From Octopus sinensis (taxonomy: Eukaryota), in assembly GCF_006345805.1 (NCBI RefSeq), contig NC_043017.1, positions 30,690,001-30,754,000 of the forward strand: a DNA stretch of 64,000 nt, in the 5' to 3' direction. The position numbers and the translations under genes are program-made. Positions 3,765 through 32,414 of the stretch are shown here, piece by piece; positions within the stretch are counted from its first letter, which is position 1, and each line of letters starts with the position of its first letter. The notes under the pieces were generated by a model, which was not told the DNA's origin, did no database searches, and saw nothing but the letters and a program-made list of their open reading frames with translations.

Positions 3765-4180
3765 AGGCGCAGGAGTGGCTGTGTGGTAATAAGCTTGATT
3801 CCCAACCACATGGTACCAGGTTCGGTCCCACTGCGTGGCACCTTGGGCAAGTGTCTTCTGCTATAGCCTCCGGCCGACCAATGCCTTGTAAGTGGATTTG
3901 GTGGATTGAAACTGAAAGAAGCCCATCGTATATATGTATATATATATATAATATATATGTCTGTGTGTGTTTGTGTGTTTGTGTTTGTCCCCTAGCATGG
4001 CTTGACAACCGATGCTGGTGCGTTTATGCCCCCGTCACTTAGCGGTTCGGCAAAAGACACTGATAGATTAAGTACTGGGCTTACAAAGAATAAGTCCCGG
4101 GGTCGATGTGTTCGACTAAAGGTGGTGCTCCAGCATTACCGCAGTCAAATTACTGAAACAAGTAAAAGAGAGAGAAAGAG
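3765..4180 (+). mobile_element. SINE family A
   Basis: Full-length homolog of 1046-1441. Confidence 0.85.
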
Positions 4181-5088
4181 TTGTTTTGGATTATAATCAA
4201 AATTTTGATGTTGTGATGGGTCATATATTGAATGATATTGTAGGGTAGGTGTGAGAGACCCGATCAGGTCAGTGTGAACAGAAATCTAGTAGAGTATGCT
4301 AAAGTGTTAAAATAATAATTAGAATAAACATTTTTAACTATGTATTATGTATATTTATTGTTTCTCTCTTGTATAAGAAGGATATATAATTAAAAAGGAG
4401 AAAAAGCGTATACTGTCGTTTTATTTTATCGTTCAAGGGTGAGTCATTTGCGTTTTTTATTTCAAGTAATAAACCCTAATGCATTGTGGAAATGATAAAA
4501 TCCACATATTATTAAGTATAAGTATTCTGCATTATCTGCAACAATGCAAACGTCGTTTATCTCACTTACTCTTTCACCTGTGTTAAGGTAAGATGGAAAA
4601 TAGCAGCTGATTAGTCAAACCTATTTAAAGTATTTCAAATACTGATGTCTTATTCCTATGACAGACCCATAAACATTCCCATATTTTTACATGTCATCGC
4701 TGCAACTCGTTGTGAATTAATTTTATGCCATCGTAGTAATATGTAATTTTATTCGAACTTAAAACTTTCAAAGTTATTTATAAAACATAGGTGTAAGAAA
4801 AAGTGAAGCGAACAAACTAAAATTTCTATACCAAACACGATAAAGAAATACATTTCATTCTAATGCCAAACGAGAGACTAGAATGACAGCTGCTTATCCT
4901 AGGAAACTTCTACAAAAACCATATACATGTATATACACAGGTATACATAAACACACACATATATACATATATGATATATATATGTACACACACACACATA
5001 TATATATATATGCATACATATACATATATTTATATGTATACATACATGCATACATACATACATATATATACACATATACATGTGTATG

Positions 5089-6137: not shown

Positions 6138-6455
6138 TGGTTAGAGCGTCGAGCTTACGATCGTGAGGTTGTGAGCTCGAATCCCGGACCGGGCTGCGGT
6201 TGTGTTCTTGAGCAAGGCACTTTATTTCACGTTGCTCCAGTTCACTCAGCTGTAGAAATGAGTTGCTACGTCACTGGTGCCAGATGTATCGACCTTTGCC
6301 TTTCCTTGGATAACACTGGTGGCGTGGAGAGGGGAGGCTGGTATGCATGGCGACTGCTGGTCTTCATAAACAACCTTGCCCGGATTGTGTCTAGGAGGGT
6401 AACTTTCTAGGTGCAATCCCATGGTCATTCATGACCGAAGGGGGTCTTTACCCTT
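6138..6455 (+). mobile_element. SINE family C
   Basis: tRNA-like head TGGTTAGAGCG...GCTCGAATCCC; flanked by (TA)n. Confidence 0.85.
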
Positions 6456-6584
6456 TAATATATATATTAATATATATATATATATATATATATACGTTTA
6501 AATATTGTGTGTCAAGATTTTTTATTGGCTAAACTGGCAATATGACCATTCCGAAATATAACAATATATATATATATATAATTA

Positions 6585-6785
6585 TATACATAAAAAAACA
6601 TTGTATACATTAGAACACATTAAGTGGCTACCAAATCGGAAAGCCTTGTGCTAGAAAGAGCAGTAGAAAACTCAAACCACTAATTATGTCTTGAGTTTTC
6701 TACTGCTTCAAATGCTCTTTCTAGCACATGTCTATTTGGAAGACTCTTACTGTGTTCTAATGTACACGATTCTTTTTATGTGAAT
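6585..6785. repeat. Imperfect fold-back (MITE-like)
   Basis: Nested inverted matches CATTAGAACACA/TGTGTTCTAATG, TGTGCTAGAAAGAGCA/TGCTCTTTCTAGCACA, GCAGTAGAAAACTCAA/TTGAGTTTTCTACTGC. Confidence 0.7.
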
Positions 6786-6882
6786 AATATATAGTCTATT
6801 GACTTTTTTTGTGCTAGGCAACTAGTAATAATAACTTCTATAATTCTTATTACCCTAATATTATTATATATATATATACATA

Positions 6883-7346
6883 TACAAATAATTGAAAGAA
6901 TGGAGTTGAACGACGATTTAACAAAATTCTTTATTCTCGACCTATGTTTCGAAGGCTGCATCTTCCTCATTTCGAAGGAATAAGGGGTGCATTATGTCGC
7001 CTTCTAATCAGGAAAAACAAGGAACTTATGTCGCATCAAGATGAACAAAAACTCTTAGATGGCTGCTCACACAGAGTCCATAGCGATAATGAGTGTTTCT
7101 TTAAAGAAATGAGTGTTTCTTTTAAAGAAACACTCATATTGCTATGGACTCTGTGTGGGCAACCATCTAAGAGTTTTTTGTTCATCTTGATGCTGACATA
7201 AGTTCCTTGTTTTTCCTGATTAGAAGGCGACATAATGCACCCCTTATTCCTTCGAAATTAGGAATATGCAGCCTTCGAAACATATGTCGAGAATAAAGGA
7301 ATTTTGTTAAATCGTCGTTCAACTCCATTCTTTCATTTATTTGTAT
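6883..7346. mobile_element. Palindromic Penelope-like pLTR element (family P2) with an HHR motif in each arm
   Basis: ~220-bp arms that are near-perfect reverse complements around a centre at ~7100-7125; homologs at 29440-30015 and 63159-63447. Confidence 0.75.
7211..7293 (+). ncRNA. Type-I hammerhead motif (G8U variant)
   Basis: TTTTC-CTGATTA-GAAGGC...GCCTTC-GAAA-CATATG-TC-GAGAA; all three stems pair; mirror copy at ~6935-7017 (-). Confidence 0.7.
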
Positions 7347-8948
7347 TAAAAAAAACACACAAATTTCCACAAGAATTATCCATACTAAGATAATTTATTC
7401 AACTACTTAAATATGTATATATATGACATTATAGAAATCACTACAAGGTTTTCGACACCTTTCTGCCATGCAGCACATTCGGAAGATGTTGTGTAATTAT
7501 TGTCGCAAGTCCTTCGTCATTTCGCTCCGTGGTGAAAATACATACCTAAATTTTTTTCCTGTGAAAAAACTGCTGGAAATGACATACCACGTTGGTTATG
7601 ATTCCTCACAGAGACAGTAGGATCGCACGAGGAACGAATTTTAAAAAATACTTTCGATGCATCATAATAATTACACATCATCTAACCATTATATTAGTGA
7701 TGCAAAAATCTCTGGAAACAATTGTAGCAATGATTTTAAATTAAAAGAAAAAAGTCTTTCATTTCATTTTCTATCATATAATCTCTTATATAAATTCTAC
7801 GGATAGTATAGAATTCCTGATGTATATTCGGTAGCCGGATTATTTTTACTGATTGTCAGCATCACGTATCCAATAACAGCATACGAGCTGTGCATTGAAC
7901 TCTGCAAGGTTTAACTATGTACATACGCCTGCTTTCTCTCATATATGTATGTACGTATGCATATGTACATATGCGAGTATGCTTGCATATGGTTATGAGT
8001 ATGTGTAGGTGTACCCTCAAATACATGTATAATATTATATGTAACTTATTATTGGGAAGAAGGCGTTGTCTCAATAAATTATGTCCAATTAATCACGACA
8101 ATCTTTAATTTATCTCGAATTCTACTAGTAATGAGATATCGTCTAGTGTGCACGTGTATGCATGCAAATACAGACACGCACACTCACACATAATGTATAA
8201 TATACACAGAAAGAAGGGATCCCACACACGCATAAATATATATATAGAAACATGTGTGTGTATGTGTGCATCTGTGTGCGTGCGTGTGTGGCTGTCAGTG
8301 TATGTGCAAGTGTGTCTCCCACTTTTTTGAGAGTTATTTCCTTCTTTTTGCTTACGCTACGTAATTAGCCAAGAATATGCTCCAAGTTACGTATGATACA
8401 TAAAATATCTGTACACACACAGAACGCATGCACACACACACACACACACACGTACATGCCTTCCTACATACACACAAACATATAAAGAAAGAATGATAGC
8501 AGGCAAATAATGGAGAGGAGGGTGAGAAGTATTACTTGTTTCTATGGAAACAATACCAGAATTAACGAAAGTAGTAAAATGCGTAAACACATGCAGTGAT
8601 AGATTCAGCCTCTTACATCTCCTTCTATTTCTCTATGCGCATAAAACTAATGAACGGGGTGACCCGATTTTCAGTTGTTTAGAGAGAAAGAGCTTTGAAG
8701 GGCGCATATATCTTCTATCTATAGAGAAGTACGTTGTTTATCGGGTTACATTCCCACTAAATTTGGTGGTTAACTACAAACTAGAATCCTTAATTTACTA
8801 CCTTGTTTTATAAGTGCGCACAAACTAAAAGCCACGTACATGCGTATATGCATATATATCTAAGCACATATGCTTATATGCATATATGTATATTTTTACG
8901 TATAATTGTATATACAAATGTGTCTGTATACATACATATATATATATA

Positions 8949-19589: not shown

Positions 19590-21070
19590 GGCGGTACTAT
19601 TGTGGTAACGTGATCGAAGTTTGAACCTACACGTGACAGTTTTCTATATGCACCAAAGAAGAACGAAGTGCTGTGATCCGATTTCTATGGTCGGAAGAGG
19701 CGTCAGGTGCTGAAATTTATCGGAGGCTTTTAGCACTATACGGGGATGCCCGTCAACCTCCTCCACCTTAAGCAAGATCGAGATGGTGATGAAGTACCTC
19801 GTTCCTCGCAGATAAGTCATGTTTTTTGCCTATGAAATCGTCGACGATGAGCTCGGCTTTTATGTAGTTCGTACAAGATGGGCACTCCTCACACAAACAC
19901 GTATGAGATGGCTTGGGCATGTTAGCCGTATGAAAGATGGCAGAATCCCCAAGGACATACTCTACGGAGAGCTTGCTAGGGGTACTAGGTCTGCGGTTAG
20001 ACCGCTCTTACGTTACAAGGTTGCTTGCAAAAGGGACATGAAGGCCTGCAACATCAATAATAGCAGTTGGGAGGCAGCTGCCGGCAACCGTGGAGACTGG
20101 CGACGTACCGTAAGAGAGGAAATACAAAGGAGTGACAGAGAGAGAGAGGAGAAATGGAAAGACAAGAAAAAACGTCAACAAGAAACTATGGCATTACAAC
20201 CAGCCAGGAACAGTCTTCGCTACATTTGCGGTACCTGCCAGAGGGAGTGTTTGTCCAGGATAGGACTACACAGCCACAGCAGGAAATGTATCAGGACAAG
20301 AAATGTAAGAGCCGGACTAGACTATTTTATGCGCAACTCCATTGACAAAAAGGATGCCAACCAACAAGATGGGCAGCAAGAGAGCTTACTGCAGAGTACA
20401 AACGTAAACATCTTGATGTATGCCAACGCTTACTCGATCACTACAACAATGAGAGCGAGGACTTTTGAGCAGAATAGTCAGAGGAGGTAAAACAAGGGTC
20501 CATCATTATGAGCCAGAAGCCAAAAGATAGAGCATGGCTAAGAACATCCTGCATCGCCAGGGACGAAGATAGTCACGACTCAGTCTTTCGCGCGATTGCT
20601 GATGCTAGCCCTTTTTGGGGGACACAAAAAGAACTATACTGGATAACTGACTTGAAGAGGGGTGTACAGTCAACAGTGCAAGATATAGTGTTTTGCTGGC
20701 CAACAAACTGAAGCCAGCAATTCGCACCAAATATTGAAGCCTATTCTTGAAAAAGATTTGTTGATGCATGACAATGCACGCCAACACACCTCTACCTAGC
20801 AGCGAAAACCGTTAACTAATTGGGTTTGAGATGATTGAACAACCTGTCTAGAGATCAGATCTTGCTCATTCCGTCTATCATATCTTTAGAACGCTCAAAG
20901 AGAGATTACGACGTCATCAATTTTCTATGTATTGAGATTTGAAGGAAGCGATGCATAAATGGTTGCATGGCAAACCGAAAACTTTCTCCCTGGAGGAAAA
21001 CGTCTGGATCACTGGAGTAAGTGCATCGAAGAGGAAGGAGACGATATAGAAAAATTACTTACTTATTTAT
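19590..21070 (+). pseudogene. Decayed mariner transposase interrupted by an RTE insertion
   Basis: EERSAVIRFLWSEEASGAEIYRRL N-terminus; RW(A)ARELT equivalent of WVPHEL; LLMHDNARQH; decayed SDLAHSVYH; C-terminal KCIEEEGDDIEK. Confidence 0.8.
19885..20363 (+). mobile_element. 5'-truncated RTE (BovB-like) LINE 3' end with 12-bp TSD
   Basis: RMRWLGHVSRMKDGRIPKDILYGEL...CGTCQRECLSRIGLHSHSRKC; CCAA-repeat end; ACAAGATGGGCA at 19873-19884 and 20364-20375. Confidence 0.9.
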
Positions 21071-30949: not shown

Positions 30950-31347
30950 CTAGCAGTATCACCCGGCGTTGCTCGGGTTTGTAAGGGAAATAACTATATA
31001 AGCATTTCTAGAGAGTTATAGGCAAAAAATAGCAATAAAATGCATTAAAAATGGGAACAAAATGATGGTAAATTTTTTTTAAATCGTTGACTCATCGTAG
31101 ACATTTTTAGAGAGTTACTTCCCTTATATAATAGCGACAAAATGCATTAAAAAATGGGAAAAAATGATGATAATTTTTTTTTAAATCGTAGCCTCATCGT
31201 AGACGCGCGCTAATACCCAGAAGGGCTCGATATGAATCACGACTATAAGATACCCGCTTTTGGTTACACTGCACCGCAAAATGTGGGAGTAGTTAGGAAT
31301 CTAAATCGTAGGAGATAGACACACAACTTCACTTTTATATATAAAGA
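30950..31347 (-). mobile_element. Non-autonomous Helitron, variant with an internal tandem duplication
   Basis: Same termini as 26336-26733, A|T insertion site; ~100-bp unit repeated within ~31000-31205. Confidence 0.85.
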
Positions 31348-31997: not shown

Positions 31998-32034
<37 letters not shown>

Positions 32035-32039
<5 letters not shown>

Positions 32040-32376
32040 TGCAGCGTGGAAGGTGTGTATAAGCCATTTAAAAAACACACAAAACCGTTAGATTCACTTC
32101 AGCATTTAAATTTAATTTGTCAAAATATTTTGGTCGCTTTGAGACCGCGACCTGTTCATTGACAATTCTTCGAGATGCAGCACGAAGATTTCTCAGTGAA
32201 CAGGTTGCAGTTACAAAGCGACGAAAATATTTTGACAAATTAAATTTAAATGCTGAAGTGAATCTAACGGTTTTGTGTGTTTTTTAAATGGCTTATACAC
32301 ACCTTCCACTCTGCAATTGTTTTCGTTCCAGTACACGATCGCAGATCAAGTCACTCGCTATGTAAGTATATCTCCG

Positions 32377-32380
<4 letters not shown>
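32035..32380 (+). mobile_element. Fold-back Penelope-like element (family P5)
   Basis: Hairpin 32035-32320 with ~130-bp arms, right extension to ~32380, (TA)n flanks. Confidence 0.72.
32188..32240 (+). ncRNA. Hammerhead motif with swapped G3-C8 core
   Basis: TCTCA-GTGAACA-G-GTTGC-AGTTACAAA-GCGAC-GAAA-ATAT-TT-TGACA; the mirror copy supplies a perfect stem I TTGTCA/TGACAA and stem II GTCGC/GCGAC. Confidence 0.6.

Positions 32381-32414
<34 letters not shown>

Follow-up and report, generated by a model that had tools for sequence, protein, structure and literature searches.

Within the window, a 64,000-nucleotide stretch of Octopus sinensis DNA in which all positions below are counted from the first letter, positions 32189-32239 of the plus strand carry a motif that its letters support as a minimal type I hammerhead fold, with the C3-G8 pair of the canonical core swapped to G3-C8. 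The motif is a property of a repeat family rather than of the window locus, the right arm of the hairpin that holds it being a copy of a dispersed repeat of ~204 nt in this genome (2,587 first-look candidates, 40 of them scored). By analogy with other Penelope-like elements (PLEs), the swapped core is probably that of a slow, working ribozyme that would cut only when two copies pair through AAUAUU, with cleavage as a side branch. The sequence-only reading of this DNA had proposed a hammerhead here; its fold stands as a minimal type I, and its G3-C8 pair as the family consensus, although it overlooked the Penelope-like element that accounts for the motif as well as for the hairpin, palindrome and extra G.

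Stem I (7 bp) pairs TTTCTCA (32189-32195) with TGACAAA (32233-32239), and the core GTGAACA (32196-32202) supplies G3, U4, G5, A6, A7, C8 and A9, with the swapped pair formed by G3 at 32196 and C8 at 32201 on the plus strand. An extra G between positions 9 and 10.1 (32203), seen in all nine of the lineages with the fold described below, precedes a 5-bp stem II (32204-32222), in which GTTGC (32204-32208) and GCGAC (32218-32222) enclose the 9-nt loop II agttacaaa (32209-32217). The remainder (32223-32232) consists of GAAA (32223-32226; G12, A13, A14 and A15.1), the palindrome AATATT (32226-32231), U16.1, and U17 at 32232. The predicted cut falls between 32232 and 32233, so that the predicted 3' product begins at 32233, the very letter at which the sequence-only reading had expected 5' ends. 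That reading had also listed GUGAACA in the right arm, stem II, GAAA, AATATT, a single stem I mismatch and the extra G, all of which we find in the sequence. The motif departs from the canonical CUGANGA consensus in lacking C3 and G8, although its 3-8 pair is Watson-Crick (G-C) and U4, G5, A6, A9, G12, A13, A14, A15.1-U16.1, H17 and G10.1-C11.1 are all present. Both marks of minimal PLE hammerheads, an extra nucleotide between 9 and 10.1 (G32203) and a palindromic 15-16 region (AATATT), are found as well, and by analogy helix III is predicted to arise from the palindromes of two molecules. The AAUAUU helix III dimer did not emerge from plain two-strand folding of a family copy. A strict descriptor that allows any Watson-Crick 3-8 pair has one match in the window and none in 60 Markov-resampled windows. 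Rfam gives no hammerhead match at the motif, a blank that is uninformative because relatives with a canonical core are missed too.

The swapped core is the rule throughout the family. A 22-letter pattern in which positions 3, 7 and 8 were left free has 4,661 exact matches in the genome, compared to none for the reversed control, and 4,167 of the 4,661 carry G3-C8 while none carries C3-G8; the swapped pair of GTGAACA, which the sequence-only reading had wanted checked against other genomic copies, is thus the family consensus. By hand count, 10 of the first 100 of these 4,661 matches listed lack G3-C8, each through scattered single changes, and the core together with an exact stem II is kept in 3,843 copies. 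Subfamilies differ in loop II, which reads GGTCTCAAA, GGTCTTAAA, GGTCTTATA or GGATTTTA. When column majorities of subfamily A (95 copies) and subfamily B (11 copies) are compared, none of the 42 core and stem columns differs, as against five of the nine loop II columns (Fisher p 5e-5); ten of the 153 other pLTR columns differ, and relative to these the 0/42 is not significant (Fisher p 0.12). We count this concentration of change in loop II as a probable sign of selection on the fold. At four-fold sites of two ORF copies, 38 of 186 differ (~20%), a figure that includes decay after insertion.

Evidence that the swap is compensatory comes from related elements. We scanned 1.4 kb behind the ORF at 43 loci with a descriptor that fixed G5, A6, G12, A13 and A14 and left positions 3, 7, 8, 9 and 17 free. 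Eleven loci stop short of the ORF end, 13 lack the fold and 19 have it; of the 32 loci extending to the end of the ORF, those without a fold comprise three decayed family-D loci and eight metagenome loci with at least 170 3' bases (11 in all), together with two further loci that have almost no 3' DNA. The 19 folds represent nine lineages, and positions 3 and 8 are paired in 9/9 (six C-G, two U-A, one G-C): G3-C8 is found in the lineage of subfamilies A and B, C3-G8 in family C and loci L147, L148, L151, L152 and L159, and U3-A8 in family D and L149. Since the nine lineages are related, the weight rests on the three departures from C3, each of which has the matching partner at position 8. In some relatives the homologous position holds a canonical CUGANGA, and stem II covaries too (GTCGC/GCGAC, GTCAC/GTGAC and GTTGC/GCAAC). 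The compensatory character of the swap claimed at the outset is thus supported by phylogenetic covariation across the nine lineages, all of them paired. U17 is already common among the C3-G8 relatives, and would therefore be a prior state rather than a compensation for the swap. Two extra candidates far out in the flanks of L129 and L181 are other sequence, the one in L129 having U3-U8.

In quick trees, the A/B family and families C and D of this genome fall into a single clade in which C and D group together and A/B is their sister (SH-aLRT 99-100). Family C, with a core of the CUGAUGC type (L135:1965-2015, L129, L133, L142), has 2,956 pattern matches, and by hand count the first 100 of these listed show G8 in 100, C3 in 94, A9 in 16 and C9 in 83. 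Given that A9 is normally invariant, the C9 majority in the larger family-C subfamily implies that cores in this clade tolerate damage and yet spread. At L149, U3-A8 occurs together with C9, independently of family C. Family D (L181:6664-6712, L189, L177) has the core UUGAAAA, a stem I of 3 bp and the 4-nt palindrome AAUU. In the metagenome locus L148, ~90 nt behind the ORF, a canonical CUGAAGA core is accompanied by U15.1-A16.1 in place of A15.1-U16.1 and by the palindrome UAGCUA.

In longer copies the repeat is preceded by ~1 kb of CA-rich sequence and, upstream of that, by a GIY-YIG ORF, and at L066 it passes straight into a frame of 597 codons, the ATG of which is equivalent to window position 32288. 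Locus L144 is a full-length unit with one frameshift, in which motifs at 2565 and 6926 (4,361 bp apart) flank the RT and GIY-YIG regions, one lying 55 nt before the ORF start and the other behind the ORF; on the evidence of L144 and L066 the motif sits in both pLTRs on the sense strand, which is the location described for minimal PLE hammerheads. A 1,042-codon open frame at L127 contains YVDD, a CX3CX2C linker and a GIY-YIG region, and the linker CQSNCAVC, present in L127 and L144, conforms to the CX2-5CXXC pattern of Neptune elements. As in PLEs of this type, one ORF encodes RT and, at its C-terminal end, GIY-YIG, and the copies show pLTRs, a 5' copy in inverted orientation and a tail at one end. 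In profile searches, Pfam matches GIY-YIG at E 0.0016, below the curated cut-off, Pfam RVT_1 has no match on the element ORF and a single-sequence PDB search also missed the RT, although HTH_animal, RVT_1 and GIY-YIG are all present in Atlas neighbours at 0.96, and a profile built from 29 proteins matches a solved RT at E 5.8e-6. We take the element to be a Penelope-like retroelement, probably of Neptune type, an assignment to clade made from motifs. A search of viral contigs found no relative of the element.

Other candidate affiliations were set aside. A non-LTR retrozyme consists of tandem head-to-tail hammerhead units without an ORF, whereas the copies of this family are scattered singly or in head-to-head pairs and are linked to an ORF. 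A GIY-YIG ORF beside L010/L031 was rejected as the partner of the motif, as it is part of another PLE family, which has a canonical-looking core of its own; at L031 (minus strand, 6450-7990) this other family has a GIY-YIG region with a long Asn-rich linker, and its 3' region holds a canonical CUGAUGA core with a very long stem II. A further PLE family at L062 (plus strand) keeps an intact 662-codon RT-GIY-YIG frame, head to head near a G3-C8 element, and PLEs of several families cluster together there and also at L066. At L006 a G3-C8 pLTR copy lies between two opposite-strand C2H2 zinc-finger coding stretches and is probably intronic.

The ends of the copies indicate which RNA was inserted. 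With a pattern anchored just behind the cut, the first letter of which admits A or T only, none of the first 100 of 3,262 matches listed starts at the cut site (32233), where copies templated by cut RNA would begin. Among 30 loci chosen by the 3' part alone, a set that takes in the window copy and one locus twice, 22 have their first letter within element positions 1-7, and no locus starts at the cut. Most copies begin ~60 nt upstream of the cut, and among the first 100 of 524 matches to the 5' boundary listed, 13 run on into upstream repeat. The copy ends thus carry no sign of cleavage, and the starts ~60 nt upstream, together with 0/100 listed at the cut, imply that uncut RNA was copied. Moreover, in the same 100 of 524 listed, 23 start with GAG, where the element has CAG, as against 7 with AAG or TAG (hand count; binomial p 4e-9). 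Untemplated 5' G residues in L1 and SVA have been attributed to copying of the cap (PMC3287187), on which basis the A of CAG is the probable capped start. The 3' ends of 116 arms, a set partly selected by length, fall into clusters at 140-154 (43 arms) and 200-209 (66 arms). The green anole PLE has two internal priming sites, and unprocessed RNA is its main template (PMC11167929, in the sections used here); the 3' clusters fit internal priming of this kind, an interpretation made by analogy.

The sharp 5' boundary was also considered as the junction of a spliced first exon. PLEs have introns at this place, and upstream of the predicted start there are a donor-like AAG/GTAAC, a branch-like ACTAAC and an acceptor-like TTTCTCAG, ~250 nt apart (L066 minus strand 3925-4190; L027:1255-1500). 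Among the 100 listed copies, however, there is none in which the donor side is joined to ATGCAGC, and the letters before GAG vary among the 100 listed boundary matches; the spliced exon was rejected in favor of a transcription start, which is the probable reading. The upstream sequence TCACAAAAGTG, present in ~15 of the 100 listed boundary matches, was likewise rejected as an exon or leader, as it belongs to an older composite repeat with an inverted pLTR pair. In L196-L209 this composite repeat has captured an old head-to-head pLTR pair joined by TCACAAAAGTG, followed by CA-rich sequence.

The mechanism that we consider best able to account for these observations would begin with transcription from a start ~60 nt upstream of the cut site. 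The RT of the element would prime inside the RNA, ~146 or 204 nt from its start, and copy back to the cap, and such internal priming may be what yields the thousands of short solo repeats and the head-to-head hairpins. The swapped pair presumably retains the 3-8 Watson-Crick contact at a reduced rate, perhaps aided by U instead of C at position 17. Cleavage would be the side branch, removing the capped leader or freeing unit-length RNA when two motifs meet, while the inserted RNA would be uncut. Published work on engineered and minimal cores bears on this proposal: the C3G/G8C double mutation partly rescues cleavage, in a PLE hammerhead as well (sections of PMC11167929; PMC8495972), and a G3-C8 variant does better without C17 (an unpublished observation, data not shown, in the discussion of PMC3884650). 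In addition, minimal PLE hammerheads are described as weak in vitro, with dimer action proposed, in the part of PMC4209133 drawn on here.

A further claim is one that we advance more tentatively, as a possibility still short of an even chance: that this is a natural, high-copy, active G3-C8 hammerhead new to the literature, and that the G3-C8, C3-G8 and U3-A8 sisters, with the C9 and U15.1-A16.1 variants, represent a ribozyme tuned to be slow. On this slow-tuning reading, core changes keep the fold and slow it, so selection would tune the ribozyme to slowness. If true, it would be fast enough for processing of paired transcripts and slow enough to spare uncut RNA for insertion. Since the swap requires at least one unpaired step, a mobile element would then have crossed a catalytic valley that is closed to engineered single mutants.

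The most serious alternative, which we judge to have about one chance in four, is that the motif descends from a hammerhead and no longer cuts, serving instead as a folded RNA signal (for protein binding, dimerization or as a translation leader) or as part of an internal promoter. The promoter role is suggested by the place of the motif, +17 to +67 relative to the predicted start, and GGTCG at 32203-32207, which we take to resemble a downstream promoter element with the spacing off by 1-3 nt, was counted in its favor. Inserted copies derive from uncut RNA, sister family C has spread with C9, and non-structural letters of the pLTR are conserved as well. In the anole PLE, moreover, insertion in vitro does not need cleavage and RNA-seq shows no cut ends, according to the parts of PMC11167929 used here. 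Nevertheless, a dead or DNA-level motif would have no reason to keep 3-8 complementarity through three pair types, and change between subfamilies falls in loop II. G5, A6, G12, A13 and A14 are kept in 9/9 lineages, although these letters are built into the descriptor, whereas 3 and 8 are not.

Obligatory processing is far less probable, in our estimate under one chance in ten. Here the 5' and 3' motifs would be cut as a dimer and the 4.36-kb unit ligated to a circle that serves as the insertion template, as in the cut-and-circle model of Cervera and de la Pena 2014 (PMC4209133, in the part drawn on). The two motifs per full-length element at L144 accord with this, and because a religated circle would also yield copies that run through the cut site, the 0/100 listed starts at the cut are compatible with it. 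Most copies, however, stop at one point ~60 nt upstream of the cut, and many bear an untemplated G there, a pattern that favors a linear capped template; only the 13 of 100 listed copies noted above run on into the upstream repeat.

The layout of the window locus bears on the third alternative. A (TA)n tract lies on each side of the insertion (32003-32034 on the left and 32379-32410 on the right), and TA tracts end many other copies too; a TA bias of PLE targets is described in the consulted part of PMC8557442. The solo pLTR with its tail, of the Neptune-type element, occupies 32173-32378 on the plus strand and is ~7% diverged from its closest copies, and an inverted, head-to-head partial copy of the same pLTR, which has no tail and ends near element position 146, occupies 32035-32172 on the minus strand, the same layout being present at many other loci. 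The tail (32321-32378) is on one arm only. PLE-like pLTRs, an inverted 5' copy, a tail at one end and TA targets lead us to read the whole as a solo pLTR with tail and an inverted partial copy, from one insertion. The 143-nt arms (32035-32177 and 32178-32320) are 92% complementary, which confirms the hairpin at 32035-32320 that had been noted earlier. The mirror arm had been offered as an independent witness with C8 and perfect stems: its C8 and intact stems hold, whereas it is part of the same insertion and its core (32132-32159, minus strand; A3 at 32159, C8 at 32154, C12 at 32132) is broken by A3 and C12. The predicted transcription start is A32173 (32172-32175, plus strand), preceded by a G that is untemplated in other copies and there likely a copied cap; at the window locus, the inverted arm could be its source instead. 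The first 30 codons of the RT-endonuclease ORF follow at 32288-32378 (plus strand), with the ATG at 32288, 55 nt after the predicted cut, in a frame that runs on into a long ORF in L066 and L144.

The window copy is itself probably decayed and inactive. Within the motif it departs from the 95 subfamily-A copies at five positions, which include the single C.C mismatch of stem I (32192/32236), where the C at 32192 is peculiar to this locus (90 of 95 copies have G), and a G.U wobble in stem II (C-G in 78 of 95). Folded from its own predicted start it forms no hammerhead, whereas stems I and II form in a family copy folded from its start (L008), and it folds no better than shuffles (z 0.17). The broken stem I pair, the stem II wobble and the misfolding seen in these folding models make it a poor test object for cleavage. 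Read-through RNA of the locus is predicted to form a single hairpin of -207.7 kcal/mol in which the motif is locked inside. That fold, together with weak generic miRNA-model matches far under curated cut-offs, would suit the idea that the 143-bp hairpin is the meaningful structure, a source of double-stranded or small RNA, with the hammerhead incidental. Head-to-head hairpins are a routine by-product of PLE insertion, as far as sections of PMC8557442 describe, and are present at many loci in this genome; the hairpin also leaves conservation at the family level unexplained, and we regard this idea as very unlikely. A chance look-alike or a private double mutation of one copy, with which the Rfam blank and the z of 0.17 would agree, is the least probable of all and is refuted by thousands of copies against none in the control, by the canonical CUGANGA at the homologous place in relatives and by the empty resampled windows. 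Elsewhere in the window, 19816-20490 (plus strand) holds what we take to be a C-terminal fragment resembling an RTE-type LINE ORF, and two 75-nt direct repeats, 87% alike and 102 nt apart, lie at 31028-31204; sequence like the latter follows insertions in L003, L038 and L066 and is therefore probably another dispersed repeat.

Everything here except the 3-8 swap is already known for PLEs, including the extra G, the palindromic helix III and U17. The pLTR hammerheads described in sections of PMC4209133 share with the octopus family their location in both pLTRs, the extra nucleotide between 9 and 10.1, G10.1-C11.1, a palindromic helix III and a common U17, as well as solo copies and opposite-strand pairs 100-700 bp apart; the octopus family differs in G3-C8 and in its longer stem I (7 bp). 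In Fig. S3 of that paper all 56 representatives have C3 or U3 (two U3-A8, one U3-G8) and none G3, and in the sections drawn on here U3-A8 is the only core covariation described. Natural core variants in Perreault et al. 2011 (PMC3088659) include a compensatory 3-8 change and a U15.1-A16.1 variant comparable to that at L148, whereas in the portion of its text used here the 3-8 change is only U3-A8 and G3-C8 is absent. The anole Poseidon element PAc (PMC11167929, same sections) is alike in that two internal RT starts make the tail and unprocessed RNA is the main template. In PAc, however, the partly active C3G/G8C double mutant was engineered, whereas in the octopus family the swap is the natural state, and the PAc ORF begins inside the ribozyme rather than 55 nt after the cut. 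With the Neptune clade, as described in part of Craig et al. 2021 (PMC8557442), the octopus element shares the RT, the CX2-5CXXC linker, a C-terminal GIY-YIG and pLTRs, and also the inverted 5' copy, the one-end tail and microsatellite targets, and it differs in its ~1 kb CA-rich 3' region and variant ribozyme core. In the literature searched, which covers dimeric PLE variants incompletely, G3-C8 was found only in engineered mutants and not as a natural state, and this is consistent with natural G3-C8 being rare. Work of Lunse, Weinberg and Breaker from 2017 is said, by its title, to concern small PLE-tied hammerhead variants that cleave as dimers.

Among the landmarks of the active hammerhead structure is the C3-G8 pair, whose swap appears in the literature searched only as an engineered rescue with partial activity. 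The more than 4,000 natural copies that carry the swap here, alongside sisters with C3-G8 and U3-A8 in one genome, provide evolutionary confirmation of the 3-8 pair, and the three kinds of sister are natural three-way constructs for testing this likely self-cutting RNA. Searches based on CUGANGA overlook entire families of PLEs, a point relevant to claims that certain clades have no ribozymes. Finally, the copy ends supply in vivo evidence on the purpose of PLE hammerheads, suggesting, as in the in vitro work on the anole element, that insertion proceeds mostly from uncut, likely capped RNA.
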